From assembly GCA_018669975.1 (NCBI GenBank), contig JABHSK010000001.1, positions 152,394 through 216,393 of the forward strand: DNA of 64,000 nucleotides, given 5' to 3'. The notes beneath the pieces were generated by a model. The model was given only the letters and a program-made list of their open reading frames with translations, was not told the DNA's origin and searched no databases. This stretch comes from Candidatus Parcubacteria bacterium. GTDB taxonomy: Bacteria > Patescibacteriota > Patescibacteriia > UBA1558 > GWA2-36-10. The translations under genes and the position numbers were made by a program. Below are positions 5,324-50,723 of the stretch, piece by piece (positions within the stretch are counted from its first letter, which is position 1; each line of letters opens with the position of its first letter).

Positions 5324-5353
5324 AACTATAATTATTATAAAACAGAAATACTA

Positions 5354-8905: not shown

Positions 8906-8967
8906 TTATAATGTGCAAATGCTAGAAAACATAGTACACCAAAAATAAAATCTTGTCAATAGCAAAA

Positions 8968-8998
8968 GCCCCACCTATAATGGTGGGGCTTTTTAAAC
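8968..8998. terminator. Bidirectional rho-independent terminator downstream of aspS.
   Basis: aaaagccccaccataatggtggggcttttt is a perfect GC-stem palindrome flanked by A/T runs. Confidence 0.6.
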
Positions 8999-9006
8999 AT
9001 ATTTCT

Positions 9007-10552: not shown

Positions 10553-11839
10553 CTACGGCCTAATCCTATGTATGGTGCGTGGAAATGGGATAGTTTCCCT
10601 AACATGTTGCACGCCACATACCCAAGCAACAACTCTCTCCAGTCCAAAACCAAATCCTCCATGTGGTACTGATCCATACTTTCTTAAATCTAGATACCAA
10701 GCAAATTCATCCATTGGCAATTTATGCTCTTTAACACGTTTGACTAGCTCATCATAATCATCCTCACGTTGTGATCCACCGATTATTTCTCCATAGCCTT
10801 CTGGTGCTAATAGATCAGCACATTCTGCTTTACTACCGTTGGCATCACGTTTCATGTAAAAAGATTTTATTTCTGCTGGATAATGAGTGACAAAGATTGG
10901 ATTATCAAATTCTTGCGTAAGTTTTGTTTCATCTTCCGCCCCTAGATCATCATTGTCTTTTATCTTACTACCCATGCCCTGCAATTTTTTAACTGCTTCC
11001 GCATGAGTGATACGATAAAATGGTTTTGTGATGTTATCTAGAGGCTTTGTATCCCGTTCTAATATTTTTAGTTCTTCTTGATTATTATCTAAAGCTGCCT
11101 GAACCATAAAACGAATCAAGTCTTCTTGAGTGTCTAAGTTATCTTTAAGATCTATAAAAGCCATTTCAGCATCCATCATCCAAAACTCTGTCAGGTGACG
11201 GCGTGTTTTTGATTTTTCAGCTCTGAAGACTGGACCAAAATCAAAAACTCTACCATGAGCAGCAATGGCTGCCTCCAAATATAACTGCCCACTTTGTGAT
11301 AGATAAGCCTTAGTATCAAAATATTCTAGTTCAAACAATTCAGTTGTACCCTCACAGGCATTAGGAGTTAATATTGGCGAATCAATTTTAGTAAAAGCAT
11401 GCTCCTTCATATATTGATATGTAGCTTGGATCAAGGTATTACGAACCCGTTGCACAGCCCATTGTTTACTACTACGTAGCCACAGATGCCGGTTATCCAT
11501 CAAAAAATCCACTCCATGCTCTTTCTTGCCGATCGGATAATCCTCTGCTATTTGATAAAATTCAAAATTAGCTACTTGAATTTCATATTCATCTTTTTTA
11601 GGATGTTTGGCTACCTTGCCACTTATCTTAACTGAAGTTTCTAGAGTAACTTTAGCAGCCTCATCCCACTGTTTATTATCCAAATCAGCCTGCGCTAAAA
11701 TAGCCTGAGTAAATCCAGTGCCGTCTCGAAGTTGCCAAAAAGCGATTTTACCTGAAGAACGATGATTAGATACCCAAGCATTGATCTCCACCTCTTTATC
11801 CACAAAATTGGCTAAATCCTTTATAAAAACTTTTTCCAT
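10553..11839 (-). CDS. asnS: Asparaginyl-tRNA synthetase.
   Basis: FGPVFRAEKSKTRRHLTEFWMMDAEMAF and the C-terminal GGFGFGLERVV...IPFPRT motif. Confidence 0.85.
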   Translation of the reverse strand: MEKVFIKDLANFVDKEVEINAWVSNHRSSGKIAFWQLRDGTGFTQAILAQADLDNKQWDEAAKVTLETSVKISGKVAKHPKKDEYEIQVANFEFYQIAEDYPIGKKEHGVDFLMDNRHLWLRSSKQWAVQRVRNTLIQATYQYMKEHAFTKIDSPILTPNACEGTTELFELEYFDTKAYLSQSGQLYLEAAIAAHGRVFDFGPVFRAEKSKTRRHLTEFWMMDAEMAFIDLKDNLDTQEDLIRFMVQAALDNNQEELKILERDTKPLDNITKPFYRITHAEAVKKLQGMGSKIKDNDDLGAEDETKLTQEFDNPIFVTHYPAEIKSFYMKRDANGSKAECADLLAPEGYGEIIGGSQREDDYDELVKRVKEHKLPMDEFAWYLDLRKYGSVPHGGFGFGLERVVAWVCGVQHVRETIPFPRTIHRIRP

Positions 11840-12989: not shown

Positions 12990-15900
12990 TTATTTCTGAA
13001 TTTGTTTGTTGATACGCTTACCTTCAAATTTTACAAATATCATCGGAATGACAAATAATTGTAAAATGGTAGCGAACAATAAACCAAAAATAATAGATAT
13101 AGATAGGCCTACCCAAAACTCATTTGCGATAGCCAGCGGTATAACTCCCATTATAGTAGTAATGGATGTTAGTAAAATTGGTTGTAAACGAGTATCTCCA
13201 GCATCAGCGATAGCTTCTACGGCCTGCATTTTCTTTTCCTCAATATTACGCTTGGTTTTATCAACCAGCACAATGGCATCATTGACCACAATTCCAGATA
13301 AAGATATCAAACCTAGGAAAACTGGAAAACTAAACGGCAGTCTAAATATCAACATGCCGATAACTACACCGATAAGCATCAATGGCAAAGTCATCAACAC
13401 GGTAATCGGTCTAAGGAATGAATCAAACTGTAATACTAGGATAATTAATATCAAGAGTACTGCTACAATCATGGCACTCCACAATTCAGAAAAAGATTGT
13501 TCTATGTCCTCTACCTCGCCGCCAAAATTTACTTGGTAGCCGGCTGGTATATTATATTCGGTGGCTAATTTTTCTTCCGCTTGAGCTACAACTGCTGCAG
13601 CTGTAAAGCCAGGTTCTAAATCAGAGCTAACTGAGATAGTTCGCTCAAAATCACGATGCCTGATGGATGCTAAAGCTGGCTCTAATGAAAAGTCAGCTAG
13701 AGAAGAAAGCTTAACTGTTTGACCAGAATTGTTAATAATGGATAGGTTTTTAATCTCCTCTACTGAAGAAATTTTATCTTTATCCAATCTAACTACTACA
13801 TCTATATCATCACCGTCAATTGAAACTTCAGTGGCTGTGACGCCAAAGATAGCTGTTCTAAGCATACTGGATACATCGCCTATGGTCAATCTTGACCTAG
13901 CAATAGCTTCTTTATCTAATTTAAAAGTTAAATCAGCAGGAGATATATCCTGGTTACTATCTATATTTATAGGTCCATCAAGGCTGATTAATACCTCCTT
14001 AATTTGATTGGCTACTTGATCTAAAATCATTAGATCATCTCCAGTAATACGAGCCTCAACTGGCGCACCGGTTGGTGGACCACTTGTTAGTTCTTTAATA
14101 ATGATATCACCAGCGTTAATAACCTTTATTTGCTCTCGTATATCTTCGACTACATCGAAGCTCTTCTTCTCACGATTATCTGAATCTTTGAGGTTAACAC
14201 TAATACTAGCTACATGTTCATTGCTACTGCCTGGATCAAAACTGCCAATACTAGAAGATTGTCCAATGGTAGTAACAAAGTTTTTTATATTTGGATTTTG
14301 ATAAAGTTGATCCTCTACTTGAGCAACCACCTTTTCAGTCTCTTGAAGCTCTGTACCAATAGGCATCTTGATGTCTACATAAGTAAAATCAACATCAATT
14401 TTAGGAAATAATTCAACTGGTACAATACCTCCAATTAATAATCCTAGTGAGGCAAAGAATAATATAACTAAAGAAATTACTAGTTTAACTTTTTGTTTAC
14501 GGCTCTTAAGAAAATCTACAATGACTGATCTGTATTTCTTTCTTAATCTAGTAGTCAAATAACGTTCCAAAATACTTTCTTTTTTGCTTTTAGCAAACTG
14601 ACTCTTTTTCAAGAACATACCAGCAAAAGACGGCACCAATACCAAAGACACAAATAAAGATGATATCAATACTATAGCAATAGTAATTGGAAAAATCTTG
14701 AGATACTCGCCCAAGATGCCGCTAACCAAAAGCATTGGGAAAAATGCAGCCACAGTAGTCAACATACCAGCTGTTAGTGGTTTGCTATAGTTAGCCACTG
14801 ATAACAGCGCTGCTTTAACAGAAGGATAACCATCTTCACGTATATTGTGAAAAATACCTTCTAGTATAATTATAAATGAATCAACCAATAGGCCCAGCGA
14901 CAATACCAAGGCATAAAGGGTCATACTGTTTAATGTGTATCCTGAATAATATAAAACTATAAATGAAATCAAGAATGTAACTGGAATGGCAAATAAAGCT
15001 AAAATAGCTTCTCTAAAACTCAAAGCAACAAACATAATCATGAAAATCAGTATTGTAGCTTGCAAACCACTCCTACCTAGTGTATCTAAATCTTCACGAA
15101 TAAAACTAGAGTAGTCATTATTAACCTCAACTTTAACTGCTGCTGGAATTATTTTATCTTCCTGTAGTTGCGCTACCTTAACTTTGGCAGCATCTACCAT
15201 ATCTAAAATATTACCACCAGTTTTTTTGAAAATCTGCAAAGAAACAGTATTTTGTGCTGGTTGTCCATCTATAGAAATTCTAGAAACAATATTTTGTTCT
15301 GTGAATTGTTCTTTAATTTCAGCAACGTCTTTTAATAAAATCGGTCGCCCCTCATTCTCACCAACTACCACACCTTTAAGATCTTCGATAGATTCAAACT
15401 TAGCTACCGTACGAATATTATAATGAATATTATCAACCGTAATATCACCCAAAGGCATATCCATATTAGCTATAGAGATAGCACCAACTATTTGATTAAT
15501 TGATAATCCCAGTCTAGCTAAAGATGTTTTATTTATAATTACAGAAAATTCTTTATCTCTAACGCCTAATAAAGGCACCTTGGAGACTCCTGAGATTCCC
15601 TCTAGCTCATCCTGTACTATTTCTCCCAGTTGCTTAAGCTGATTTTCGGTTAAATCTCCAGCTAGAGAAAAAGTGATAACTGGAAAGTCATTGGCACGAA
15701 TCTGAATAACACTTGGATCTTCAGCATCATCAGGTAATCCAGACACATAACCAACTTTTTCTTTTAAGTCAGTAATACTGTCGTCTAGATTAGCCTCTGC
15801 TTCAAACTCTACAGTAATAGATGACAAGCTGGTACGCGAATTTGATGTTACACGTTTAACATTATCCAATTCTTCAATTTTACTTTCTAGTTCATCAGTA

Positions 15901-16150: not shown

Positions 16151-17773
16151 TTATTTATTGACAATATCTATTTCATCGCCAACAGAAACAAAAACTCCGT
16201 TTAGTAATACCAGTTGATCACCTTCTGCTAAACCACCGGCTACTGATACTTTATCACCAAAAACTTGTCCTAGAGTAACAGATTTTCTAAAAATTTTTCC
16301 TTCTTCTGCAATAAAAACGTATGAACCTGAAGCTTCGATAGTAACGGATTTAATTGGAATAACTATTGTATCGATATCCTTATATATTAAATTAAATTTA
16401 ATATCAGCAATATCACCAGCCACTAAATCTGCTTCTGCTTCGCTACTCTGTACAGTCACAGAAACTTTGCCACTATTTAAATCACCAGTCGGCTCAATTT
16501 CTACCACGATACCCCTGTATTGATCATTGATTAAAACCTCATCGTTTAAAGTAAGTGCTTTGGCAAAATCAACATCTACATCAACTATCATTTCTACAAT
16601 AGATAAATCTCCCAACTCAATTAATTGCTGTCCAACACCTGCCTGTTCTCCAGGATTAGCATAGTGTGACATGATAGTACCAGAAAATGGAGCAGCTAAA
16701 GTCAGGTTATTATAATTATAAGCAGCGCCATCAAACTGGGTTTGAGACATACTTTTTTCTAGAGCAGCGCCATCTTTGGCATTCTGCAAACTAATTTCAG
16801 CATTATTATATTCAATCTGTGATAAATTCAATTGACTCTGAGCTTGATTTATAGACAATCGATTAGTAATTTCCGTATTACTAATACTATTAATAGTAGC
16901 AATAACGCTAGTAACGTGTTGATTAATCTGTGTCTGATAATTAGCCACACTCAATTGTGCACTAGCTATATCAGCAACACTATATACATTTCCATTGGGA
17001 ATAGCGTTTTGCAAAAGTACAGCTGTATTATCCAGGGCATTTTTGCCAGACAATAAAACTGTTTGTATTTCATTAAAATAAATATCTAGATTTTCTCTAG
17101 GAGCTGCAACTGATAAATCAGAAAAATCATAAACTGCCTGATCTAACAAAAAACCAGTGTCAGTCCGCAGTTGCTCTTCAGCTGTTAAAATATTTCTATA
17201 CTTAAAACGTGGATTATCATCATTTCCTTCATTCAAGAAAATCAAGGCTTGATTTAGAGAGTTGTAAGCTGAACTATAAGCTACCATAGCTGAATCCTCA
17301 GCGGTACGTAAGGCCTGCTCAGTCTGAGCAATAGTGTTGTCATATTGACTTTGGGCTAGATCTAATCTGGCCTTTGAACTATTTAGACCCAGTTCGGCTT
17401 GCTGAATTCTCTGCCCAGTAACAATGTTTGTTTGATCCAAACTTTGTCGAGCATTAAAAAAACCGCTCTCAATCCCCTCATCTCTTATAGAGAAAAGCGG
17501 TTGACCAACGACTATTTGCGAACCTACTGGTGCTAAATATTCAATTGTACCAGGAGTAAGACTTCTAACCACACTATATTGTTTTGGCGTTACAGTACCG
17601 CTGGCTGACAAAGAAGAACTTACCTCACCTTGTTTGGTGATATATTGAACTTCTACCTGCTTTTTAATTACAGGCTCTTCAGCTTCTTCAACCTTATTAC
17701 CACATCCAGTTAAAGTGAATGCAGCAATTACCAATGCGGACAACAAAAGTGTTCCTTTAATACTTCTACTCAT
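16151..17773 (-). CDS. Efflux periplasmic adaptor (membrane fusion protein, HlyD/AcrA-like) lipoprotein.
   Basis: Lipobox (LTGC), a long coiled-coil and beta-barrel/lipoyl-like domains. It is co-oriented with and adjacent to the RND pump. Confidence 0.8.
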   Translation of the reverse strand: MSRSIKGTLLLSALVIAAFTLTGCGNKVEEAEEPVIKKQVEVQYITKQGEVSSSLSASGTVTPKQYSVVRSLTPGTIEYLAPVGSQIVVGQPLFSIRDEGIESGFFNARQSLDQTNIVTGQRIQQAELGLNSSKARLDLAQSQYDNTIAQTEQALRTAEDSAMVAYSSAYNSLNQALIFLNEGNDDNPRFKYRNILTAEEQLRTDTGFLLDQAVYDFSDLSVAAPRENLDIYFNEIQTVLLSGKNALDNTAVLLQNAIPNGNVYSVADIASAQLSVANYQTQINQHVTSVIATINSISNTEITNRLSINQAQSQLNLSQIEYNNAEISLQNAKDGAALEKSMSQTQFDGAAYNYNNLTLAAPFSGTIMSHYANPGEQAGVGQQLIELGDLSIVEMIVDVDVDFAKALTLNDEVLINDQYRGIVVEIEPTGDLNSGKVSVTVQSSEAEADLVAGDIADIKFNLIYKDIDTIVIPIKSVTIEASGSYVFIAEEGKIFRKSVTLGQVFGDKVSVAGGLAEGDQLVLLNGVFVSVGDEIDIVNK

Positions 17774-17935
17774 ATTCTACTCAATTATTGAATTATCAAG
17801 TCCACGAAAATTAACATAATAGGGCTCTTTTGTCAATATTAATTAAAACAAGATTTTTTTATCTACAAAAAAATAAAACGCTTGACATATCTTTTGAGTA
17901 TGTTAGTATGTGTATATAAGACACTAACATAATTT

Positions 17936-18619
17936 ATGTCCAACCCAACAGTACAAGCGGAACACGCTAAACAAAATATCAAACTAGCTGTTGATAATTG
18001 TATTTTTACTGTCAAAGACGGCAAGCTTTTTATTTTACTAATCAAAATGAAGTCTAAGCTCCAGGGGATGTGGGCCTTACCAGGTGGCTTAATTAAAGAT
18101 ACCGAAACAATTGGTGCAGCTGCTCAACGCATTCTTAAACAAGAAACTGGTCTATCAGACAACTATCTCGAACAACTCTATACTTTTAGTCAGCCAAATC
18201 GTGATCCTTTTGCTAGGGTTATTTCTACTGCCTATTTTGCTCTAATTCCTGACGCAAACATTGAACTTAAACCAAGTCCAAAATATGATGATGTTCGTTG
18301 GTATCCTGTTAAAAAACTACCGGAATTGGCCTATGATCATAATCATATCGTTAAATATGCAAAACAAAGATTAGAGTGGAAAATCAGCTACACCAACGCT
18401 GCATGGTCTTTATTACCAGAAAAATTTACTTTGACTGAACTACAAAAAGTATATGAAGCAATATTGAATAAAAAACTGGATAAACGCAATTTTCGTAAGA
18501 AAATAGACAAAGTTGGTCTACTTAAGGAAACTAAACAAACCAAATTAGAAGGTGCACATAGACCAGCTAAATTATATGAATTTTCCAGCAAAAAGAAGAA
18601 AATAGTAGAAATTATCTAA
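17936..18619 (+). CDS. nrtR: NrtR-like regulator: a degenerate Nudix domain plus a C-terminal winged-helix DNA-binding domain.
   Basis: The Nudix box is degenerate (GGLIKDTETIGAAAQRILKQETGL; the RE/EE acidic residues are replaced). The C-terminus reads FTLTELQKVYEAILNKKLDKRNFRKK, reminiscent of the NrtR DNA-binding domain. The gene is encoded in low-GC native DNA. Confidence 0.6.
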   Translation: MSNPTVQAEHAKQNIKLAVDNCIFTVKDGKLFILLIKMKSKLQGMWALPGGLIKDTETIGAAAQRILKQETGLSDNYLEQLYTFSQPNRDPFARVISTAYFALIPDANIELKPSPKYDDVRWYPVKKLPELAYDHNHIVKYAKQRLEWKISYTNAAWSLLPEKFTLTELQKVYEAILNKKLDKRNFRKKIDKVGLLKETKQTKLEGAHRPAKLYEFSSKKKKIVEII

Positions 18620-18894
18620 TTTTACTCCTTTTCTTATATTTTTTTGTTCTTATTTAGTGTACTTTTCACACTAATAAGTAAATATACCTAAGACTTGACA
18701 AAATTACCAAAATATGATAAAAAGAACCGTTTATTTTGTAAATAATTTCAGCTTTAATCCCCTTTCCAAAGGGCGAGCCGTTTGTTGCCTAAAAAATGGA
18801 AATTAAATTAGTTTCTATGCTTTAGGTAGCAAAACCTATATGTTCGTTAACAATTTGGTTTTGAAAAACACTCAACAATGAGAAAGGAGGAGAA

Positions 18895-19755
18895 ATGAGC
18901 CTATTAGAGATTTTCCAGGTAGCAGCCGGCACAGTAGCTGGTCGCGACCACACTCAAGTAGGTAAAAACAATCAGGACGCCTTTTGCTTTGCTGCCCATG
19001 ACGATGTCATGGCTGGTGTAGTCTGTGATGGCTGCAGCACTGGCAAGCATTCGGAGGTTGGTTCTAAACTAATCGCACGCCTGATTGTCCGCCAAATCAT
19101 CACCAACAAGGACAAGTTCCAAGGTGGCGATGACTCTATTTCCCGTTTGATGCAGAGAATTAAAAACTCTGCCCTAATGTACGTCCAGCTTTTAGCTGAT
19201 GGCATGGGCATGAGTTTTTCTCAGGCAATCAATGATTATTTTCTGTTTACCCTGGTGGGTACGATTATTTTTCCGGACAAGAGTATTATTTTTTCCTTGG
19301 GTGACGGTGTCTTTGCCCACAACGGTGAAGTGACCACAGTTGGTCCTTTTCCGGGCAATGCTCCGCCCTACCTGGCTTATAACTTGGTAACAACTGATCT
19401 AGCCACCGAAAATCCTGATCTCCTGGACTTCAATGTCCATGTGATTCATGAAACTTCCCTGACAAGCTCAATCTTGATTGGCTCTGATGGGATCTGTGAC
19501 CTGATCGACATCGCCGAGCTCAATATGCCAGGCAAACCCAAGCTAGTTGGTCCCATGTCACAATTTTGGACAGACGACCGCTACTTCAACAATCCGGATA
19601 TGGTCCGACGAAAGTTGGTCCTAATCAATCGTGAAGCAACCAGACTGGATCGGGAAGGCCCAAGCTTGCAAAAGTATCCAGGCCTACTCCCCGACGATAC
19701 CACTCTGATTGCCATCCGCCGCAAACCCATTACCGAGGAAGGTGGTGAGGACTAA
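18895..19755 (+). CDS. PP2C-family Ser/Thr protein phosphatase-like protein.
   Basis: Motifs GRDHTQVGKNNQDAF, VCDGCSTGKH (DGxG), GSDGICD and DDTTLIAIR. AGGAGG RBS. GC ~55%. Confidence 0.7.
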   Translation: MSLLEIFQVAAGTVAGRDHTQVGKNNQDAFCFAAHDDVMAGVVCDGCSTGKHSEVGSKLIARLIVRQIITNKDKFQGGDDSISRLMQRIKNSALMYVQLLADGMGMSFSQAINDYFLFTLVGTIIFPDKSIIFSLGDGVFAHNGEVTTVGPFPGNAPPYLAYNLVTTDLATENPDLLDFNVHVIHETSLTSSILIGSDGICDLIDIAELNMPGKPKLVGPMSQFWTDDRYFNNPDMVRRKLVLINREATRLDREGPSLQKYPGLLPDDTTLIAIRRKPITEEGGED

Positions 19756-21632
19756 TGAACGTTTACGTTCAAGGACAACTTGTCCGTCTTGATCCTCGCA
19801 ACTCTATCGGTAAAGGTGGCGAGGCCGATGTTTTCAAGATGGGCAGCTCACAAGCTGTTAAAATATTCAAAACACCAAGTCATCCAGACTTTGTTGGACA
19901 AGATCACGAAAAAGCAGCAGCTGAAGCGAGGCTCAAAGAGCATCAGCTGAAGCTGCGCGAATTTCCGAAGGGCCTGCCGCCACGAGTCATTACTCCGGTG
20001 GACTTGGCTACCGACAAATCGGGTCGCCTGATCAAGGGCTACGTCATGCCACTGATTGGTGACTCGGAAGTTCTGCTGCGCTATGGCGAACGCAAGTTCC
20101 GCCAAGGTGTTGTCGGAAACGACATGGTGGTCAATATTTTCACAGATATGCATGACACCATATCCGGCATTCATTCCGTCAAGGTAGTCATTGGAGATTT
20201 CAACGATCTCAACATCCTGGTAACAGATCAGGGTGAAGCCTATTTCATCGATGCAGACAGCTTCCAGTTTAGCAGTTACCTGTGTCGGATGTTTACTGGC
20301 AAATTCGTTGATCCTCTACTCTGTGATCCCAAGCACAAAAGTCCGATGCTCAATAAACCCCATAATGCCGAATCAGACTGGTATTCCTTTGCCGTTATGC
20401 TCATGCAGTCACTGTTGTTCGTCGGTCCCTACGGCGGTATCTACCGTCCCAGGGACAAAGGCAAACGAATGACGCATGATGCTAGGCCGCTGCATAGAGT
20501 GACGATATTTGACCCCGAGGTCAAATATCCCAAGCCGGCTACACCCTACGGTATATTGCCGGATGATCTCTTGCAACAGTTCTATCAGATTTTTGTCAAA
20601 GATCAGCGTGGTCAATTTCCATTAACTTTACTCGAGGGTCTTCGCTGGACTACCTGCAACGCCTGTGGCGCCGAACATGCCCGAGCAATCTGCCCGGAAT
20701 GTTCACAAGCAGCTCCAGCAGCCATCAAGGAAAAAGTCACGATCAGGGGCACAGTCAAATCCACTCGGATCTTCAAGACCGGTGGCACAATTGTCTATGC
20801 TACTGTTCAAAACGGAAAATTGCGCTGGCTCTACCATGAGTCCAATATACTCAAACGCGAAGACGAGTCCCAGGTAGTGAGCGGCAAACTCAATCCTCGG
20901 ATGCGTTTCCGTATCCAGGGAAACAACACACTGATCGGCCAAACCGGCCAATTGGCAGTGGTTTCTCCTGGAAACAAACCTTCACCCATGACTGTCGACA
21001 ACTACACGGGCGTATTACCCATGTTTGATGCCAACGGTGATCACCGCTACTGGTTGCAAAACGGCCAGCTAATGCGTGACGATCGTCTCGGCACCAGCAA
21101 GGTTATCGGCGATGTCTTGGAAAACCAGACTATGTTCTGGACTGGTGACAAGTTTGGCTTTGGATTCTATCGAGCTGGAGAACTATGTAGAGCCTTCATC
21201 TTCGATGCTCAGAAGTCTATTCTCAATGATTCAGTCAAGCTGCCTCCTATCAGAGGTCAGATAGTTGACGCCACCTGTTGCATTAGCAATAACCGAGTCT
21301 GGTTCCTGGTTTCGACCAGGCAAGGCGGCAAGACTATCAATCAGTGCTTGTTGTTCAAGCCTGATGGTACTCTGGTAGCCACAGCTGAAGCTGAAGAAGG
21401 AGACGACTCCTGGCTGTCGACCATCCGTGGCAAGTGTGCTGCTGGCGACTTTATGCTAGCAGCTACTGAAGACGGCCTGGTCCGTATCGAAGCCAATGGC
21501 AGCGGTCTCAGTTTGACCAAGGAATTCCCTGACGCAGAACCATTCGTCCACCCCGGCTGCAGGCTTTTTGCCAGTCGAGAAGGACTTTGTGTCATCGATC
21601 ATCAAGAAATTCGGGTACTGAAAATTTCCTAA
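19755..21632 (+). CDS. Ser/Thr protein-kinase-like protein with a C-terminal zinc-ribbon and a beta-rich domain.
   Basis: Gly-rich loop IGKGGEADVFK with Lys in AVKIFK; catalytic-loop-like IGDFNDLNILV; DFG-like FIDADSF. It also has CNACG...CPEC. TAATG start overlap with the phosphatase suggests translational coupling. Confidence 0.65.
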   Translation: MNVYVQGQLVRLDPRNSIGKGGEADVFKMGSSQAVKIFKTPSHPDFVGQDHEKAAAEARLKEHQLKLREFPKGLPPRVITPVDLATDKSGRLIKGYVMPLIGDSEVLLRYGERKFRQGVVGNDMVVNIFTDMHDTISGIHSVKVVIGDFNDLNILVTDQGEAYFIDADSFQFSSYLCRMFTGKFVDPLLCDPKHKSPMLNKPHNAESDWYSFAVMLMQSLLFVGPYGGIYRPRDKGKRMTHDARPLHRVTIFDPEVKYPKPATPYGILPDDLLQQFYQIFVKDQRGQFPLTLLEGLRWTTCNACGAEHARAICPECSQAAPAAIKEKVTIRGTVKSTRIFKTGGTIVYATVQNGKLRWLYHESNILKREDESQVVSGKLNPRMRFRIQGNNTLIGQTGQLAVVSPGNKPSPMTVDNYTGVLPMFDANGDHRYWLQNGQLMRDDRLGTSKVIGDVLENQTMFWTGDKFGFGFYRAGELCRAFIFDAQKSILNDSVKLPPIRGQIVDATCCISNNRVWFLVSTRQGGKTINQCLLFKPDGTLVATAEAEEGDDSWLSTIRGKCAAGDFMLAATEDGLVRIEANGSGLSLTKEFPDAEPFVHPGCRLFASREGLCVIDHQEIRVLKIS

Positions 21633-21715
21633 ATCTAGGAAAGGAGCCTCCAAAAAAATATTACGCAAGTCAATTCTTTCACAGAACGATTAACCAAACC
21701 TGAGGAGAACATACC

Positions 21716-22762
21716 ATGTCTCAGCTCAACACTCTGCCCGTGCCCGCTCACTTCAATCCGGCTCGCGCCAACGAAGTGTACCGTGTTGGCTACCAGGGTC
21801 TGGCCACCGAAGCCGCAGCCTGGCGCAAACAGCATGACATCCGTCCCGCTGCCAGCGATCGCAAGGTCATCACTCTGATGCCCATCGACTGCCAAAACAC
21901 CTTCTGTCTGCCCGAGTTCGAACTGTTCGTGGGCGGCCAGTCTGGCACCGGTGCCATCGACGACAACGTCCGCTTGACGGAGTTCATCTACCGCAACCTG
22001 GGCGTACTGACCAAGATCACGCCAACGATGGACACCCATCTGCTGATGCAGATCTTCCATTCCATCTTCTGGGTCAACGAGGCCGGCGAAAATCCGGAAC
22101 CCAATGCCACCGTCATCACTCTTGACGACGTCAAGGCGGGAACCTGGAAAGTCAATCCGGCCATCGCGCACAGTATCGCCAGAGGCAACTACACGGCACT
22201 GCAGGCTCACGCCATGCACTATGTCGAGAAGCTGACCGATGACGGCAAGTATCCCCTGATGATCTGGGGTTACCACGCCATGCTCGGTGGCATCGGCCAC
22301 GCTCTGACCTCAATCATCGAAGAAGCCTGTTTCTTCCACGCTGTGGTTCGCCACAGCCAAACTGGCTTCGAAACCAAGGGCGGCGATCCACTGACGGAAA
22401 ACTATTCGGTTCTCCGTCCCGAAGTGCTGACCACCACCGGCGACAAAGTGCGTACTCAGAAGAACGCCATGTTTATCCGTACGCTCCTCGAGTCCGACGC
22501 GGTCATTATCGCCGGTCAGGCCAAGAGCCACTGTGTGGCTTGGACTATCGCCGATCTTCTGGACGAGATCAACGCCCAGGATCCGACGCTGGCCAAGAAG
22601 GTTTATCTGCTCGAAGACTGCACCTCACCGGTGGTTATCCCTGGCGTGATTGATTTCACTGACCAGGCCAACGAGGCATTCCAGCGTTTCGCTGACGCCG
22701 GCATGCACGTGGTACAGTCCACCGATCCGATCGACACCTGGCCCGGCCTCAACCTGGGCTAG
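21716..22762 (+). CDS. Isochorismatase-family cysteine hydrolase, nicotinamidase (PncA)-like, with a ~150-aa extension.
   Basis: MPIDCQNTFC (the VDxQNDF equivalent), metal-binding MDTHLL...FH, and catalytic Cys in GQAKSHCVAWT. Confidence 0.55.
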   Translation: MSQLNTLPVPAHFNPARANEVYRVGYQGLATEAAAWRKQHDIRPAASDRKVITLMPIDCQNTFCLPEFELFVGGQSGTGAIDDNVRLTEFIYRNLGVLTKITPTMDTHLLMQIFHSIFWVNEAGENPEPNATVITLDDVKAGTWKVNPAIAHSIARGNYTALQAHAMHYVEKLTDDGKYPLMIWGYHAMLGGIGHALTSIIEEACFFHAVVRHSQTGFETKGGDPLTENYSVLRPEVLTTTGDKVRTQKNAMFIRTLLESDAVIIAGQAKSHCVAWTIADLLDEINAQDPTLAKKVYLLEDCTSPVVIPGVIDFTDQANEAFQRFADAGMHVVQSTDPIDTWPGLNLG

Positions 22763-22830
22763 TTCCTACTAACTCAAGTTCAATAAGTATTTAGTCAAAC
22801 AACCTTAAACCTCTAAAAGGAGGCTCAATA

Positions 22831-23610
22831 ATGAGTGATGTCAACAGTCTGTTCCAGTCAGCTGCCGATGAAGGCGAATTGTCGCCCGAGGCTCTCGGTG
22901 TATTGCAGGTGGCGGATGTCGGTGCTCAAATCCAGAATGCTCTGGGTGTGGACCCCGACGAGTTCGAGGCTTCCGAGGTCATCCTGATGACCCAGATGCC
23001 CGACGACTCCGGTTCCATTCGCTTTGCTGGCAATAGCCAAGTGATGCGTGACGGCCACAACCTGGTCCTGGAATCGCTCGGCGGCACCAAGCAAGCCGAC
23101 GCTGTCCTGGCCATGTGTCGCTACCTGAACGGTCACGTACTGTATCCTTACAGTCCGCTGGCCCAGGCAGTACGCATGGACAGCAACAACTACGACCCGA
23201 ACCACGGTACCCCGCTCTATGACGAAACGGTAGTCTTGCTCGGTGCGGTCCTGGCCAAGGCCCAGGAGTTCGCCGACAATGGCATCGTCGCTCGGACGGT
23301 GACGCTGATCATCTCCGATGGCGCCGATGTTCACTCCCGTCGCAACACCCCAACCGATGTCGCCAAACTGGTCAAGGACATGCTCAAGCAGGAAAACCAC
23401 ATCGTGGCTGCCATGGGCATCGATGACGGCGACACCGACTTTCGGCAGGTCTTCAGCGAGATGGGTATTCTGGACGAGTGGATTCTGACTCCTGGCAACA
23501 GCGAGAGTGAAATCCGCGCGGCTTTCCAGACCGTTTCGCAGTCGGCCGTTCGTGCCTCCCAGGGAGGCGCCAGCTTCTCGCAGACTGCCATGGGCGGCTT
23601 CGGGAGCTGA
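22831..23610 (+). CDS. von Willebrand factor A (vWA) domain protein, TerY-like.
   Basis: MIDAS-like DDSGS and ISDGAD motifs. It is the third member of a phosphatase/kinase/vWA triad. A terminator hairpin follows at ~23640-23680. Confidence 0.5.
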   Translation: MSDVNSLFQSAADEGELSPEALGVLQVADVGAQIQNALGVDPDEFEASEVILMTQMPDDSGSIRFAGNSQVMRDGHNLVLESLGGTKQADAVLAMCRYLNGHVLYPYSPLAQAVRMDSNNYDPNHGTPLYDETVVLLGAVLAKAQEFADNGIVARTVTLIISDGADVHSRRNTPTDVAKLVKDMLKQENHIVAAMGIDDGDTDFRQVFSEMGILDEWILTPGNSESEIRAAFQTVSQSAVRASQGGASFSQTAMGGFGS

Positions 23611-23819
23611 GCTAGCTCTGGGATAATTCAAAACCAAATATTAGGAGGTGCACCCCACGTGGTGCACCTCCGCCCCTTTTTTCTTTAGAAATAAGAAAAT
23701 TGTAGCTAAAATAATTTGGCTATAACCTTTTTGTTCCTAACCTTAAAAGTTTCGAGCATAGTTTTGAACCTTCACAAATGAAACGTTTAGATAAAAATCT
23801 CAAACCAAGGAGAAAAATC

Positions 23820-24389
23820 ATGGCAAATAACATGCCGCAAAGACTCGTCTACGATGGCTTCCTAAAAGTCAAAGTAGTCGAAACACCCGAGGGACCTCGT
23901 GAAGTGGTCCAGGTAACCAATTCTGTCAGCATTCTGCTCTTCAACCCAGACGAAAAATACGTACTCTTAATCCGACAAGCTCGAGTTCCTATGATTTCTG
24001 ATAGCAATCCTGGCGGCTTCATAGTAGAAACCGTAGCTGGTCGCTTTGATATCAATGTAGGTGTCACAGCATTGGCAATTAAGGAAGCCCAGGAAGAGGT
24101 CGGCGCCACCATCGAAGAAAGCGATGTCGTATTACTTAATGGTGGTAAGCCGCTGGCTTTGTCGCCCGGTGTTTTAACCGAGCGCGCCTACCTGGCCATG
24201 GCCAAAGTTGATGTACCCTACGGCGAAGCCACAGACCGTGTCTTTGGTGTCGCCGATGAAGGTGAAAGCATCCAACGCGTCTTCATGAAATTCGATGAGA
24301 TCACCGATTATCTCAACAGCGGCCAGTGCGAAGACCTGCGTGTCTTTACTCTGCTGAGCATGCTGCTGATGTCGGAAAATTTCGAATAA
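23820..24389 (+). CDS. NUDIX hydrolase, ADP-ribose pyrophosphatase-like.
   Basis: Nudix box AGRFDINVGVTALAIKEAQEEVGA and aaggag RBS. The start was chosen at MANNMPQ (23820). Confidence 0.7.
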   Translation: MANNMPQRLVYDGFLKVKVVETPEGPREVVQVTNSVSILLFNPDEKYVLLIRQARVPMISDSNPGGFIVETVAGRFDINVGVTALAIKEAQEEVGATIEESDVVLLNGGKPLALSPGVLTERAYLAMAKVDVPYGEATDRVFGVADEGESIQRVFMKFDEITDYLNSGQCEDLRVFTLLSMLLMSENFE

Positions 24390-24453
24390 AACCCTCCCAA
24401 ACACATTGACCCGAAGTAATTTGTAATAACGAACCAAAAGAAGGGAAAAAACC

Positions 24454-25332
24454 ATGGCCAAAGATCCTGGAACCATTAAAAGGTTACCTGACGGAACTGT
24501 AAAAGTCAGGGCCCAAAATATGAGTCCTGGCATCCTCAAGTGGCCTGGAGTTCAGTGTGAAAACCCTGATGCTCCCGAAGCCGAGCGATATTACTTCAAG
24601 ATCTTTACTGACAAGACTGTTTATCTGCCCGACGAATACGAACAAGCTGTTCGAGAAGTGCTGCGATCCGGTAAGGATATCGTAGTTTTAGCCGGCAACG
24701 GCTACTCGGATATCAACCCTCAGCGTTGCGCTGACTGGGGCATTAAGCAGGGCGCTTACGAAGAAGCTTCGTTTGCCCTACTGGATAATGCGTACCAGAG
24801 ACTGCGTGAACAGCTAACTGGTATCGATATCCGGATTGCTCATGGAGCATCCCATATGGGTATCGATCTGGTCCTGATGCGTCTGGCTGAGAAATACAAC
24901 ATTCCTCAGTTGGGGCACAGCTGTGTCCGCTATATGTTCTACGTGCAGGACGATGATATCCCAGTATGGGTTGGCAATGATGTCGATCACTACGTCGAAG
25001 GATTCACCGATTCCCTGGACGTTCTGGTGTCAGCCAACGGAGCTCTGCAGTCCTATCGAATGGACGTCAAAGCTGTATTCGAAAAAGGCAAGCACTGGAT
25101 CCCACTCAATGTACTCCAGGCTATTTCTACCACTGGTGGTCCCCCGGCCATGGATGCCGACGGCAAGATCGTCGACGCCGTAGCCCTGTTCTACCAGAGG
25201 GTGCATATGATCACCGTACAGATGGGAGTAGTCGGTGAAGATCACTGGCTCAGCATGGTCGACAAGACCTCAACAACGCTGGTTTCCATCTGTCGCAATC
25301 TGATTAGCCCCCAAAGGGCTTTCATGACATAA
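24454..25332 (+). CDS. Hypothetical protein, possibly a Rossmann-like nucleotide/ligand-binding (SLOG/LOG-like) domain.
   Basis: The only hint is the DIVVLAGNGYSDINPQRCADWGI segment, which loosely recalls DprA/LOG-type glycine-rich strands. No firm motif was found. Confidence 0.4.
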   Translation: MAKDPGTIKRLPDGTVKVRAQNMSPGILKWPGVQCENPDAPEAERYYFKIFTDKTVYLPDEYEQAVREVLRSGKDIVVLAGNGYSDINPQRCADWGIKQGAYEEASFALLDNAYQRLREQLTGIDIRIAHGASHMGIDLVLMRLAEKYNIPQLGHSCVRYMFYVQDDDIPVWVGNDVDHYVEGFTDSLDVLVSANGALQSYRMDVKAVFEKGKHWIPLNVLQAISTTGGPPAMDADGKIVDAVALFYQRVHMITVQMGVVGEDHWLSMVDKTSTTLVSICRNLISPQRAFMT

Positions 25333-25344
25333 AAGGAGGAGTCG

Positions 25345-26601
25345 ATGAAAGACCGACCAATCATCACCTCTCTCATGGACATCGACTTCTACAAGTTGAC
25401 CATGGGACAATTGATTTTTCTCATGTATCCGGATGTGCAAACAACTTTCCGATTCATCAATCGAACCAAGGGTGTGCCTTTGTCGCACTACGTCGACATT
25501 GGTGAACTACGTGAACAGTTGCAGCATGTCCAGACCCTGCGTGTAAACAACACCGAGCTGCACTATCTAAGGGGAACCAACGAATACGGCGAGCGGATGT
25601 TCCGCGAGCCGTACCTAGAATTCCTGCGCGATATGCAGCTACCGGATTTCGAGCTGTCAACTGACAGTGATGGACAACTTCGTATATTCTTCCCTGGTCT
25701 CTGGTCTACCAATACCTATTGGGAGACTCTGGCCCTGTCGATTACCAGCGAGCTGTGGTGTCGTTCCCAGATGAAGCATCTCAGTCGCTTCGAGCGTGAG
25801 CTAATCTGGGCCGAAGGTCAAAAACGACTGGCTACCAAGCTAGCTATCCTAACCGATCCCCAAAACAGCAGTCTGACCATTTCGGACTTTGGTACTCGTC
25901 GTCGCTTCTCCAAGGAGTGGCAGTGGTATGTGGTCCGTACACTGGCTGAGGAACTTCTCCCTGGACAGTTCCTGGGAACCTCCAATGTCCAGTGCGCCAT
26001 GGATCATGGCCTACTACCGATGGGTACCTCGGCTCACGAATTGCCGATGGTTCTATCGGGTATCATGCACGGTAGTGATGATGAAATCCGCGCCTCCAGC
26101 CAGAAGGTTCTGGCGGACTGGTGGGAAATCTATGGCCACGGCCTGTCGATCTTCCTGCCGGATACCTATGGCACTGATTTCTTCTTTAATGATCTGACTC
26201 GTGAACAGGTCGAAAATTGGAAGGGCTTCCGCCACGATTCGGGTGATCCGATCGAGTTTGGCGAGAAAGTTCTCCGCCTCTATCAGCGTCACGGTGTCGA
26301 TCCTCTGGCTACCGGCAAGTTCATCGTTTTCAGCGATGGACTGGATATGAACACTATCATCCAGCTACACCAGCACTTCAGGGATCGCATCCGTATCAGC
26401 TTTGGTTGGGGTACTAACCTGACCAATGACATGGGTCTGCGCACCTTGTCTCTGGTAATCAAGGCTTACGAGGCCTGCGGTCACGGCTTAGTCAAGTTGT
26501 CTGACAACCTGGACAAAGCCACCGGTCTGCCGGATGACATCGAACGTTTCAAGGCTATTTTTGGCCACACCACTACCTATCGACAGGAGTGTTTGGTCTA
26601 A
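25345..26601 (+). CDS. pncB: Nicotinate phosphoribosyltransferase.
   Basis: DIDFYKLTMGQLIF, DFGTRRRFS, GTSNVQCAMDHGLLPMGTSAHE, GFRHDSGDP and KLSDNLDKATG give close collinear similarity to E. coli PncB. A terminator hairpin follows at ~26607-26640. Confidence 0.85.
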   Translation: MKDRPIITSLMDIDFYKLTMGQLIFLMYPDVQTTFRFINRTKGVPLSHYVDIGELREQLQHVQTLRVNNTELHYLRGTNEYGERMFREPYLEFLRDMQLPDFELSTDSDGQLRIFFPGLWSTNTYWETLALSITSELWCRSQMKHLSRFERELIWAEGQKRLATKLAILTDPQNSSLTISDFGTRRRFSKEWQWYVVRTLAEELLPGQFLGTSNVQCAMDHGLLPMGTSAHELPMVLSGIMHGSDDEIRASSQKVLADWWEIYGHGLSIFLPDTYGTDFFFNDLTREQVENWKGFRHDSGDPIEFGEKVLRLYQRHGVDPLATGKFIVFSDGLDMNTIIQLHQHFRDRIRISFGWGTNLTNDMGLRTLSLVIKAYEACGHGLVKLSDNLDKATGLPDDIERFKAIFGHTTTYRQECLV

Positions 26602-26709
26602 TTATATTGGTGGTGACTCCGTGTCACCACCCTTTTCTCAAGTTACTTATGCATTAGGTGATTTAAGAGAAGTAAAAAGTTCATTCACAATTCACAGAAA
26701 GGAAAAACC

Positions 26710-27636
26710 ATGGCTACCATAGTGTATTCATGCCAAGGCATGCAAAATTTGTCCGACGACCTAGTAGGAACTGGCGTACAAGTTAGGCGAATTGACTGGA
26801 AAACGTTTAAGGATGGCTATCCGGACCTTATTATTCCTGATGTCCATGAAATCCGCGGCAATGACGTGGTTTTCCTGGCCAGCATGGAAAATCCCCAAAC
26901 CATCTTCGAACAACTATCAGTTATTTATGCCATACCTCGCTATGGCGCCCGTTCCTTGACCATTGTATTACCCTATTTCCCGACAGCCACCAAGGATCGT
27001 GTGGATGAGGAAGGTGAAATCTGCACCGCCAAAACTCTGGCGAGAATGTTTTCAGCTACTCCCTTGTCTATGCACGGACCGGCTCGTCTGGTGATGTTTG
27101 ACATTCATGCTCTGCAGGAAAGATTCTATTTCGAAGATACCATTATCCCGCAAATGGCTACGGCCATTCCTCTGCTCAAAAAGCAACTGGAAACGGATGC
27201 AAGTATCGCTATCGCCTTTCCTGATGAAGGTGCCTGGAAGCGCTTCCATCGTTTCTTTGAAGACTACCCGCAGATCATCTGCCACAAAGTCCGTCAAGGA
27301 GATGAACGCATCGTCACCATCAAAGAGGGTAATCCGCGTGGTTATCATGTAGTCATCGTCGATGATTTGGTCATGACCGGTGGCACTCTGGATGAGTGTC
27401 GCAAAGTTTGCATCGAAGCTGGCGCCAAGACTGTTAGTGCTTTTGTTACCCACCCGGTCTTTCCCCAAGAATCCTGGAAACGCTTTACTGGCAGTGGTCC
27501 TGATCAATTTAAGAATTTCTGGATCACAGATTCTTGCCCTGATACTATCAAGGCTATTAATCATGCACACCCCTTCAAACTTCTACCCCTGACACAGACA
27601 ATTCGTGATATAATAGATAGCGAAATAAGACACTAA
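26710..27636 (+). CDS. prs: Ribose-phosphate pyrophosphokinase (PRPP synthetase) family protein with an atypical N-terminus. It could be a canonical Prs or an ADPR-PP-synthetase-type paralogue.
   Basis: VMFDIHALQERFYFE (like DLHAEQIQGFFD), IAFPDEGAWKRF, the PRPP-binding loop VIVDDLVMTGGTL, and VSAFVTHPVF. Confidence 0.75.
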   Translation: MATIVYSCQGMQNLSDDLVGTGVQVRRIDWKTFKDGYPDLIIPDVHEIRGNDVVFLASMENPQTIFEQLSVIYAIPRYGARSLTIVLPYFPTATKDRVDEEGEICTAKTLARMFSATPLSMHGPARLVMFDIHALQERFYFEDTIIPQMATAIPLLKKQLETDASIAIAFPDEGAWKRFHRFFEDYPQIICHKVRQGDERIVTIKEGNPRGYHVVIVDDLVMTGGTLDECRKVCIEAGAKTVSAFVTHPVFPQESWKRFTGSGPDQFKNFWITDSCPDTIKAINHAHPFKLLPLTQTIRDIIDSEIRH

Positions 27637-27669
27637 CCAAGACCGCAAGGTCCAAGGAGGAATAAAATC

Positions 27670-28620
27670 ATGAGCAACACCACAGGTATCCTTAGCCGAG
27701 ATCAGATCCGCACAGTGGTCGATCGCGGTGCGCAGTCACTCCTCGATTACTGCCGACTACACAACATTCACTATCTGGTCACTGGTCAGTCCGGCGGTCT
27801 AGATTCGGCTGTTACTCTGGGTTTTGCCCAGCGAGCCTGCCAGTTGGCCGAGGCCAATAATTTTCAGTTGACTTCGGTCGGACTGATTATGCCCTGCCAT
27901 TCCGATGAATCCGCCGAACGCCTAGGTATGAAGGCTATTGAAAAGTTTGGTGCCAAGCAGATGATTATCGATCTGACACCAACTTTTGATCACGCTTTCA
28001 ACAACTCCTCATTGATGAGTCACACCGACATCCAGGTGCGGCAAATTCTTAAGGAAACCGGCGGAGACAAGTCGTTAACTGAATGGACCTGGTCCCAGAA
28101 GATCGCCCAGGGAAACATCAAGGCTCGTCTACGCATGATGTACGGCACCTATCACGTGGCTCGCATGATGCAGGGCATGGTTCTGTCCACTGACAACCTG
28201 TCCGAATTCTGGATGGCCTTTTGGACTATCAACGGCGATGTCGGTGACTACGGCATCGTTCAGCAGATTATGAAGGGTCTGGAACTCTACCAGATTGCCG
28301 AATATTTGGGTGTACCCGACGAGATTCTGGAAGCCAAACCCGATGACGGTCTCAATGTAGGTAACGGCGACGCCGATCAACTCGGCGCCGACTATCCAAC
28401 CATCGACCGCATTATGGTCCATCTAATCCAGCAAGGATTCGATCCCGACGGTTCCATGGATCAACTGGACGGGCTCCCAGCCATCGATGGCGTTCACTAT
28501 CACATCGTTCGCAGCATTGCCGAACGCTGTCTGCGTGGTGCATTCAAGCGCCACGGCACCATCATCCTTTCTCGTGAAAATCTGGATCTACCTCCTATCA
28601 AGGAGATCGTTCTGCCCTAG
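27670..28620 (+). CDS. nadE: NH3-dependent NAD+ synthetase.
   Basis: PP-loop LVTGQSGGLDSAV, NIKARLRMMYGTYHVA and STDNLSEFWMAFWTINGDVGDY show NadE family collinearity. Confidence 0.8.
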   Translation: MSNTTGILSRDQIRTVVDRGAQSLLDYCRLHNIHYLVTGQSGGLDSAVTLGFAQRACQLAEANNFQLTSVGLIMPCHSDESAERLGMKAIEKFGAKQMIIDLTPTFDHAFNNSSLMSHTDIQVRQILKETGGDKSLTEWTWSQKIAQGNIKARLRMMYGTYHVARMMQGMVLSTDNLSEFWMAFWTINGDVGDYGIVQQIMKGLELYQIAEYLGVPDEILEAKPDDGLNVGNGDADQLGADYPTIDRIMVHLIQQGFDPDGSMDQLDGLPAIDGVHYHIVRSIAERCLRGAFKRHGTIILSRENLDLPPIKEIVLP

Positions 28621-31511: not shown

Positions 31512-31586
31512 AATCCCTCCGTTAGTTTATTATTAACATTAAAATTATAACATTTTCTGTTCCAAAATAAAAATTTCCTAAGCTAA

Positions 31587-50711: not shown

Positions 50712-50723
50712 GGAGGTCTTCCA

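Follow-up and report, generated by a model that had tools for sequence, protein, structure and literature searches.

The 64,000-nucleotide stretch of contig JABHSK010000001.1 analysed here (hereafter the window), from a Candidatus Parcubacteria bacterium, carries a cassette of four genes whose products are, in order, a PP2C-type Ser/Thr phosphatase, a Hanks-type protein kinase, a divergent nicotinamidase-like cysteine hydrolase and a von Willebrand factor A (vWA)-fold protein with a metal ion-dependent adhesion site (MIDAS). The four open reading frames (ORFs), all on the + strand, occupy positions 18895-23610, exactly where an earlier description made from the letters alone (the sequence-only reading) had placed them as a TerY-P-like triad of phosphatase, kinase and vWA protein with an embedded nicotinamidase-like gene. 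What that description overlooked is the context of these genes: nrtR lies directly upstream, together with operators, and NAD-salvage genes lie downstream. Nine + strand genes fill a GC-rich block (18895-28620), with the AT-rich nrtR gene just 5' of it.

Products of the four cassette genes

The first gene of the cassette (18895..19755, +) encodes a PP2C-type Ser/Thr phosphatase of 286 amino acids (aa) recognized by Pfam (PP2C_2, E 6e-15), the metal-binding residues of which (D28, D45, D137, D198, D267 and D268) do not vary among 30 sequences, one of them E. coli PphC. The earlier assignment of this protein to the PP2C family is confirmed by the Pfam match and by the catalytic Asp motifs (D28, D45-G46, D198-G199 and D267-D268, the four metal-binding motifs), which are complete in the window protein and invariant in the 30 homologues. 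The motifs that had been quoted for it are real, although the patterns were loose, the actual strings being GRDH..NNQD, CDGCS, GSDG and DDTT.

The start of the kinase ORF (19755-21632, +) overlaps the stop of the phosphatase gene by 1 nt, at position 19755. Its 625-aa product was modelled with AlphaFold2 from 121 homologues with a predicted local distance difference test (pLDDT) score of 92.9 and comprises a Hanks-type protein kinase domain (aa 1-300; 19755..20654, +), a zinc ribbon of the form C301-x2-C304...C313-P-x-C316 (20655..20702, +) whose four cysteines are invariant in 121 sequences and, beyond the ribbon, some ~300 all-beta residues that fold into a 7-bladed beta-propeller (aa ~326-625; 20730..21632, +), in which R368, R384, R386, R441, R473, R558 and R577 are conserved. 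By sequence, the Pfam Pkinase match to this protein is only sub-threshold. The features that make it a Hanks-type kinase are a bilobal fold, a Gly-rich loop, a catalytic Lys, a D-x4-N loop and a DFG-equivalent Asp; within the family, the Gly-rich loop, K36, D148-x4-N153 and D166/D168 are invariant, as are DP and DW motifs that match subdomains VIII and IX. A search of plasmids with the cassette kinase returned E. coli YegI and rhizobial kinases, located in vWA-PP2C-kinase triads, and the family profile aligns with YegI, zinc ribbon included (hhalign probability 97.9%, E 3e-13), and with the kinase of a Sinorhizobium plasmid triad (hhalign probability 98.1%). A small-molecule kinase (Bud32, RIO, Kdo-kinase or APH-like, names that appear in some sources) was rejected, given that the protein has a Hanks fold and subdomain VIII/IX-like motifs and is homologous to YegI. 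The strings from which the kinase had been called (GKGGEADVFK, AVKIFK, IGDFNDLNILV and DADSF) are literally present, and the protein has a kinase fold rather than the non-kinase fold that had been entertained as a way for the call to fail. The sequence-only reading also saw correctly that the C-terminal extension consists of a zinc ribbon and a beta-rich region, but what it described as a domain of unknown function is the propeller, for which a sensor role is a guess.

The last gene of the cassette (22831..23610, +) encodes a 259-aa protein that is not matched as a vWA domain by Pfam, NCBIfam, phmmer against the Protein Data Bank (PDB) or profile searches against the PDB. Its AlphaFold2 model (pLDDT 90.3) retrieves vWA domains throughout the top Foldseek matches (E 7e-6, probability 1.0), with CMG2, TEM8 and integrin I domains among them. 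This structural comparison, proposed at the outset as a check, bears out the vWA call; the DDSGS string is literally present, and vWA domains, not an unrelated Rossmann domain, head the Foldseek list. The MIDAS (D58-x-S60-x-S62...T127...D163) is complete and invariant in the family, members of which further share an N-terminal helical extension and a Ser-rich C-terminal tail (FSQSAVRASQ..GGFG) conserved only within the cassette. In this tail, S236 and S238 are invariant and S243 is nearly so; all three are candidate phosphosites.

Between the genes of the kinase and the vWA protein lies that of the hydrolase (21716..22762, +), a divergent nicotinamidase-like cysteine hydrolase of 348 aa. Both its catalytic triad (D58, K221 and C273) and its metal site (D106 and H108, forming a D-x-H motif, and H187) are invariant in 35 sequences. 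All four of the best PDB matches of the family profile are cysteine hydrolases, and nicotinamidases make up three of the four (M. tuberculosis PncA, 3pl1; the Leishmania enzyme, 3r2j; yeast Pnc1, 2h0r), and three colinear aligned blocks hold D8, H71 and C138 of PncA, with which D58, H187 and C273 of the cassette protein respectively align. The metal-His motif is of the WPxHC type and reads WGYHA in the window; public sources label homologues of this protein as 'isochorismatase / nicotinamidase-related amidase'. The invariant active-site motifs and the PncA-type proteins heading the profile matches, at marginal E-values, agree with the nicotinamidase-like character proposed earlier, and family knowledge predicts nicotinamidase activity for this enzyme. 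Members of the family also have a conserved N-terminal extension, a large insertion and, after the strand carrying the catalytic Asp, a near-invariant GGRSGTGA loop that could act as a phosphate-binding element.

Conservation of the cassette and its NrtR-type operators

One genome per species (185,579 species genomes) was scanned for relatives of the kinase, and 81 loci were tabulated; 74 loci entered the analysis of operators. Kinase relatives are found in 438 of the 185,579 genomes. Homologues are numerous in cyanobacteria and Patescibacteria, at 50% identity or more over the full length of the kinase and at 60-70% identity for the hydrolase and the vWA protein; kinase relatives are also present in Myxococcota (Sorangium, Minicystis), Planctomycetota, Acidobacteriota, gammaproteobacterial metagenome-assembled genomes (MAGs) and an Aenigmatarchaeota MAG, and the cassette itself, kept in order at about 63-75 of the 81 loci, is spread over Patescibacteria, Cyanobacteria (Nodosilinea PCC 7104 is one carrier), Myxococcota, Planctomycetota, Acidobacteriota and a DPANN archaeon. 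Alongside the kinase, encoded at all 81 loci, PP2C is encoded at 75, the hydrolase at 69, the vWA protein at 63 and NrtR at 50. The order PP2C-kinase-hydrolase-vWA, on one strand, is constant, and most absences reflect contig ends. Because the same four genes recur in the same order at dozens of distant loci, the arrangement is far beyond chance, and the conservation of this order makes the hydrolase a core member of a four-gene cassette (69/81 loci) and not, as the sequence-only reading had it, an insertion into a triad.

At five loci from Spirulina and other cyanobacteria (L017, L021, L055, L042 and L039), unrelated genes follow the PP2C-kinase pair or the kinase alone. In Spirulina sp. CCY15215, a homologue of the vWA protein is encoded on another contig (P0030), indicating that the cassette can be split.

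Two subtypes of the hydrolase can be told apart, 'IDxQNTFC ... WPYHA' (64-70% identical to the window protein) and 'IDxQKDFCFP ... WPPHC' (41-50%), a split that its vWA partner does not show. Six loci encode a conserved 230-aa domain without a Pfam match (GLCGRIIRGKKPEDF...FTVHLRELFSGDGYTY), which does not occur in the window. In five of the six it forms the N-terminal part of a fusion with the nicotinamidase, and two loci also have a stand-alone paralogue of the domain 3' of the vWA gene (L004:11914-12633; L008:11919-12605, 14738-15424; L047:11923-12636, 14953-15624; L045; L049; L068).

Apart from Uma2 (putative restriction endonuclease) genes at some cyanobacterial and Sorangium loci, the genes that recurrently accompany the cassette all belong to NAD/ADP-ribose metabolism. 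They encode a Nudix ADP-ribose pyrophosphatase, Prs, NadE and, most frequently, PncB (14 loci). An ADP-ribosylglycohydrolase (ARG; Pfam ADP_ribosyl_GH, E 9e-38) is encoded in cyanobacterial versions of the cassette, at 7 of the 81 loci and not in the window (L048:9123-9935, L050:9207-9980, L059:9140-9976, L072:9213-9986, L001:9101-9916 and L081:14868-15638 among them); its gene usually lies between those of PP2C and the kinase, and in L081 between those of the hydrolase and the vWA protein. Through this enzyme, the cassette is tied to protein de-ADP-ribosylation. At 8 loci, in some gammaproteobacterial and Patescibacteria MAGs, a fusion of an NMNAT-like cytidylyltransferase with an NAD kinase is encoded 3' of the cassette (e.g. 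L047:16492-17883).

Relatives of three of the cassette proteins also occur in an uncultured jumbo phage (LR756511.1, locus L085, 595 kb), where vWA, PP2C_2 and kinase genes are spread over 9 kb (473-1213, 4696-5529 and 7947-9686). The phage vWA protein aligns with the cassette vWA family, Ser-rich tail included (hhalign probability 95.5%), and the phage kinase is 28% identical to the cassette kinase domain; the nicotinamidase is not present.

In the window, nrtR (17936..18619, +) encodes a 227-aa repressor made of a Nudix domain (Pfam NUDIX, E 1e-16) and a winged helix (NrtR_WHD, E 4e-28), which the NCBIfam model NtrR also matches (E 8e-47, below the equivalog cut-off). A sigma-70-like nrtR promoter, TTGACA-16-TAGTAT with a TG element, lies at 17882..17909 (+; 10/12 matches in a consensus scan). 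An operator-like palindrome (TATGTGT-N7-ACACTAA, 2 mismatches; 17907..17927, +) overlaps the -10 element of this promoter, suggestive of autoregulation of nrtR. Between nrtR and the PP2C gene is a perfect 21-bp NrtR-type operator (TTAGTGT-ACTTTTC-ACACTAA, 0 mismatches; 18654..18674, +), followed at 18696..18894 (+) by a promoter-like block (TTGACA...TGATAAAAA), a leader of ~170 nt and a GGAGG ribosome-binding site. The predicted target DNA of NrtR in the window is TTAGTGTACTTTTCACACTAA. In an alignment, the operator, the promoter-like block and part of the leader are kept in a genome related at the 91% level and in a different Parcubacteria genome. Blocks of the PP2C leader (CCTA..GTTCNTTAACAATT.G.TTTG) are shared with the latter, and the leader holds an imperfect hairpin (18830-18863); a riboswitch was considered for this region, which no Rfam family matches.

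The NrtR operator has been described as a 21-bp palindrome with a GT-N7-AC core, from which ADP-ribose releases the repressor in vitro (PMC2330246). Palindromes with this core are found 5' of the PP2C gene at 44 of the 74 loci (shuffled sequences: mean 1.9, maximum 6). The more specific motif TAGTGT-N7-ACACTA (2 mismatches or fewer) occurs in 60 of the 74 PP2C upstream regions, compared with 0 of 58 controls, and is also found at loci without an adjacent nrtR gene. The cassette thus probably belongs to an NrtR regulon, and this NrtR would, from what is known of the family, respond to ADP-ribose. A third operator-like site in the window (31522-31542), by a bestrophin-like gene in AT-rich DNA, was judged to be a chance match given that five matches with 3 mismatches or fewer occur window-wide against 4.4 expected.

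Downstream genes and acquisition of the GC-rich block

The four-gene unit ends in a terminator-like 11-bp GC-rich hairpin followed by a T-run (23644..23671, +). Beyond it lie, all on the + strand, the remaining genes of the block. The first (23778..24389) encodes a 203-aa protein resembling Nudix ADP-ribose/NDP-sugar pyrophosphatases (Pfam NUDIX; NCBIfam YffH/AdpP subfamily, E 7e-14). The next (24454..25332) encodes a 292-aa protein possibly of the SLOG (YAcAr-like) nucleotide-binding fold: the protein itself has no Pfam, NCBIfam or PDB match, and among the 114 representative clusters of its family two members match Pfam YAcAr at E 9e-6, a weak lead. It could be a ligand sensor or supply the missing step from nicotinate mononucleotide (NaMN) to nicotinate adenine dinucleotide (NaAD); a homologue is encoded in locus L004 (15608-16477). 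Then follow genes for a 418-aa PncB nicotinate phosphoribosyltransferase (25345..26601; NCBIfam NF003704, 422 bits against a cut-off of 379; TIGR01514, 316 against 269), a divergent 308-aa pyrophosphokinase of the Prs family (26710..27636; TIGR01251, 123.5 against a cut-off of 113) whose best PDB match is B. subtilis PRPS (E 3e-21, 79 bits), and a 316-aa NadE NAD synthetase (27670..28620; Pfam NAD_synthase, E 6e-31; TIGR00552 above cut-off). The Prs-like protein and PncB were also considered as a phage NARP1 Adps/Namat pair, in which Namat is Nampt-like and Adps belongs to an ADP-ribose pyrophosphate route; this would explain the absent nadD gene. The assignment is not supported: PncB passes the curated nicotinate phosphoribosyltransferase cut-offs, and phage proteins are no nearer to the Prs-like protein, which scores 57 bits against the Prs-like proteins of E. 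coli and Klebsiella phages (where described Adps occur) as opposed to 79 bits against B. subtilis PRPS.

The GC content of the window is ~35% and that of the block (18895-28620) ~50% on average, with sharp edges on both sides and a drop after 28620. The nrtR gene itself (GC 0.32-0.35) is AT-rich like the host genome; GC is likewise host-like (0.29-0.35) over the whole of nrtR, the operators and the leader (17700-18894), whereas the nine structural genes range from 0.45 to 0.60, the step falling exactly at the PP2C start codon. This contrast makes different histories, or different degrees of amelioration, of the two parts seem likely. The GC excess of the cassette over its flanks is ~+15 points in the window and +5 to +14 points at Patescibacteria-type loci, as against ~0 in cyanobacteria and Sorangium. 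Judging by its composition, the cassette in the window is a horizontally acquired GC-rich block. A chimeric MAG assembly was ruled out as the cause of the GC step, since a relative whose kinase is 91% identical at the protein level keeps this gene set, likewise flanked by the RND efflux and ABC transporter genes.

Other GC-rich patches of the window (0.47), at 33708-36145 (-) and ~48000-52000, may be further acquired islands; the former codes for a HATPase_c_3 protein of 568 aa and for a protein of 244 aa that Pfam does not match. Elsewhere, two adjoining genes encode paralogous class II aminoacyl-tRNA synthetases of the D/K/N type (9007-10425 and 10553-11839, -), with a tRNA-Thr gene between them.

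Proposed function of the cassette, and relation to known systems

On balance, this discrete and horizontally mobile four-gene module is probably an ADP-ribose-induced unit for nicotinamide removal and NAD recycling, the enzyme of which is gated by a kinase/PP2C/vWA switch. This proposal draws on the folds, catalytic motifs, synteny, operator conservation and kinase-YegI homology that we observe. Cleavage of NAD would yield ADP-ribose and nicotinamide; the former would free NrtR from TTAGTGT-N7-ACACTAA operators, leading to transcription of the module, and the nicotinamidase would convert the latter to nicotinate. In this genome, the Nudix enzyme would then turn ADP-ribose into ribose-5-phosphate and Prs would make phosphoribosyl pyrophosphate (PRPP) from it; PncB would combine nicotinate and PRPP into NaMN, and NadE would produce NAD from NaAD. 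The kinase and the phosphatase, whose activities are expected from family knowledge, would form with the vWA protein a reversible phosphorylation switch of the TerY-P/YegL-PphC-YegI type that gates the nicotinamidase step post-translationally. The propeller would be its input or docking domain, and the MIDAS of the vWA protein might act as a phospho- or acid-dependent clamp, holding either the nicotinamidase or the kinase according to the state of phosphorylation; the identity of the phosphorylated partner and the input to the propeller are speculative.

A number of points weigh against this proposal. Canonical pncA genes do without a switch of this kind. The target of the triad could lie outside the locus, and some Spirulina-type loci have the PP2C-kinase pair without an adjacent hydrolase and vWA gene. 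The E-values of the hydrolase against the PDB are marginal (0.019-0.085), the match consisting of three short motif blocks; Pfam Isochorismatase misses the window hydrolase, which has no Pfam or NCBIfam match at all, and is detected in one homologue only, weakly (E 1e-3). The operator in the window lies 21 nt 5' of the -35 box and not over the promoter. Lastly, the operon has no nadD gene, NadD being encoded elsewhere.

Alternatively, the cassette may be a conflict (anti-phage) system of the TerY-P type in which ADP-ribose, arising in infection or from NAD-depleting immunity, acts as inducer, the triad senses infection and the nicotinamidase is the effector, starving the phage pathways NARP1 and NARP2 of their substrate while the host keeps its nicotinate route. 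We regard this as unlikely, though deserving of attention. The kinase falls in the YegI/TerY-P triad clade, there are reports of TerY-P-like modules acting as defence systems on their own (Gao 2020, cited in PMC10542128), and nicotinamide is a substrate of NARP1 as well as of NARP2 (bioRxiv 10.1101/2024.02.11.579819). The cassette is distributed in a patchy, transfer-like way, with a GC excess at Patescibacteria-type loci and in the window, the ADP-ribosylglycohydrolase of the cyanobacterial cassettes recalls the NrtR/WYL-regulated ARG systems (PMC9503650), and three of the cassette proteins (kinase, PP2C and vWA protein) have relatives in a jumbo phage. Against this, the vWA protein and the hydrolase are 60-70% identical between phyla, whereas defence genes typically diverge rapidly. 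The PADLOC defence models are unmatched beyond weak similarities of the kinase, to PD-T4-6 and MkoA only, and of PP2C, to a generic model (E 0.0024); no PADLOC TerY-P model is matched, and the vWA protein has no match even at E 10. Such high conservation and the lack of matches to defence models argue against a classical defence system. Uma2 aside, the sampled loci hold no nuclease, other toxic effector or defence-island neighbours, and the NAD-rebuilding genes that follow the cassette in the window fit housekeeping recycling.

Another reading, which we hold to be less probable again, is that the triad and the nicotinamidase are co-regulated but separate, the switch reporting NAD/ADP-ribose stress to other targets, for example in growth, translation or the cell envelope, and the nicotinamidase being constitutively active once made. 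Bacterial Hanks kinases usually have many substrates, those of YegI not being known, and propellers are common protein-docking platforms; the occurrence of PP2C and kinase genes apart from those of the hydrolase and the vWA protein at some loci would also be accommodated. Such a separation is difficult to reconcile with the strict kinase-hydrolase-vWA order at ~63 loci across phyla, which argues for a physical or functional unit, and with a vWA tail and N-terminal helices that are conserved within the cassette alone.

The cassette might also be an ADP-ribose-triggered device for nicotinamide denial: cleavage of NAD by immune NADases or phage enzymes would, by way of NrtR derepression and the kinase/PP2C/vWA switch, unleash the nicotinamidase and starve NARP1 and NARP2, and the host alone would rebuild its NAD through PncB and NadE. 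We consider this doubtful, below the two preceding possibilities in probability. Given that NAD cleavage products are central to phage-host conflict, a conflict role nevertheless stays in play, and nicotinamide denial, if true, would be the first concrete biochemical output for TerY-P/YegL-PphC-YegI triads. Least probable of all is that the hydrolase is a triad-controlled amidase for another substrate (for instance NMN, NR, NAD or a modified protein side chain), for which its ~150 additional aa relative to PncA (N-terminal extension and large insertion), its GGRSGTGA loop, the six loci associated with a 230-aa domain (fusions being itemised for five of them) and its unclassified status in Pfam and NCBIfam could speak, as against a WPxHC-type metal-His motif (WGYHA in the window), D-x-H site and D/K/C triad that are all present and the fact that no accessory gene is more frequent than that of PncB (14 loci), an enzyme dependent on free nicotinate.

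To our knowledge, TerY-P/YegI-type triads, widespread as they are (E. coli K-12, defence islands), have no known input, substrate or output. Under the NAD-recycling proposal, the present variant would tie such a triad to a single enzyme (the nicotinamidase), a single signal (ADP-ribose, sensed by NrtR) and a single pathway (NAD recycling). With identities of 50-70% it is conserved among Patescibacteria, cyanobacteria and myxobacteria, and these features together make triad function directly testable. Control of NAD homeostasis in bacteria has so far been mainly transcriptional, exerted by NadR, NiaR and NrtR, and the proposed switch would add a post-translational layer to it. The hydrolase, a divergent form that Pfam and NCBIfam models miss, further provides a nicotinamidase candidate in genomes where it would escape annotation as pncA.

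Comparison with known systems

The TerY-P triad was reportedly described by Anantharaman, Iyer and Aravind in 2012. In a full-text literature search we found no paper that brings NrtR, a nicotinamidase or an isochorismatase together with PP2C, vWA or TerY, an earlier mention in the 2012 TerY-P paper being possible. The components that define TerY-P are a vWA protein resembling TerY, a PP2C and a Ser/Thr kinase with a zinc ribbon fused at its C-terminus (PMC10542128). The cassette likewise has a vWA-fold protein, a PP2C and a kinase bearing the ribbon, and shares a mobile, patchy distribution. It differs in not being linked to ter genes, McrBC/CoCoNuT or DNA-processing genes, in having an obligatory fourth gene (the nicotinamidase) and an NrtR repressor, and in the propeller that its kinase adds where the TerY-P kinase ends at the ribbon or carries an OB fold. 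The TerY-P likeness put forward by the sequence-only reading accordingly holds for the kinase, with its zinc ribbon and homology to YegI, but does not recognisably extend to the partners by sequence: apart from their catalytic motifs, PP2C and the vWA protein are not detectably PphC- or YegL-like by sequence (the vWA profile comparison gives probabilities of 14.8% to YegL and 5.8% to the vWA protein of the rhizobial triad), PADLOC offers no backing, and neither the window nor any of the 81 loci contains ter or McrBC genes.

YegI of E. coli is an experimentally shown, membrane-anchored Ser/Thr kinase that is dephosphorylated by the neighbouring PphC (bioRxiv 10.1101/819920). As in yegL-pphC-yegI, the three protein types of the cassette are encoded side by side, the kinase and its zinc ribbon are homologous and the Asp motifs of PP2C align. 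The E. coli triad, however, has the order vWA-PP2C-kinase as opposed to PP2C-kinase-hydrolase-vWA, comprises neither a nicotinamidase nor NrtR, and its kinase has a two-pass membrane segment where that of the cassette has the beta-propeller (10.1101/819920).

ARG-centred systems regulated by NrtR or WYL proteins have been proposed to counter viral ADP-ribosylation, and some of them include a vWA protein (Iyer et al. 2022, PMC9503650). They have in common with the cassette a Nudix-HTH repressor predicted to sense ADP-ribose, in some cases a vWA 'chaperone', and, with its cyanobacterial versions, the ADP-ribosylglycohydrolase. They are otherwise built from ARG with rhodanese, calcineurin, HD or HAD phosphatases, and PP2C, kinase and nicotinamidase are not mentioned among their components (PMC9503650).

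Compared with PncA (M. tuberculosis PncA, yeast Pnc1), the cassette hydrolase shares the Asp/Lys/Cys triad, the Asp-x-His plus His metal site, the WPxHC-type block and a G-x-A-x-x-x-C-V block. It is ~150 aa longer, owing to its N-terminal extension and large insertion, is missed by Pfam and NCBIfam, and is always encoded between the kinase and vWA genes.

The published NrtR regulons of NAD salvage (nrtR-pncA-pncB, prs-nadV; Rodionov et al. 2008) have the same type of Nudix and winged-helix regulator and the same 21-bp operator as the locus described here, and pncA-like, pncB, prs and nadE genes are shared targets (PMC2330246). In contrast to the cassette, with its divergent 348-aa nicotinamidase, they do not include kinase, PP2C or vWA genes; two NrtR targets, nrtX and nrtY, were left unidentified in that study (Rodionov et al. 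2008). The cassette, in sum, probably works in the manner of a TerY-P/YegI-type switch; it shares the kinase lineage of these triads and forms a distinct, four-gene, NrtR-controlled and NAD-linked variant outside those described.

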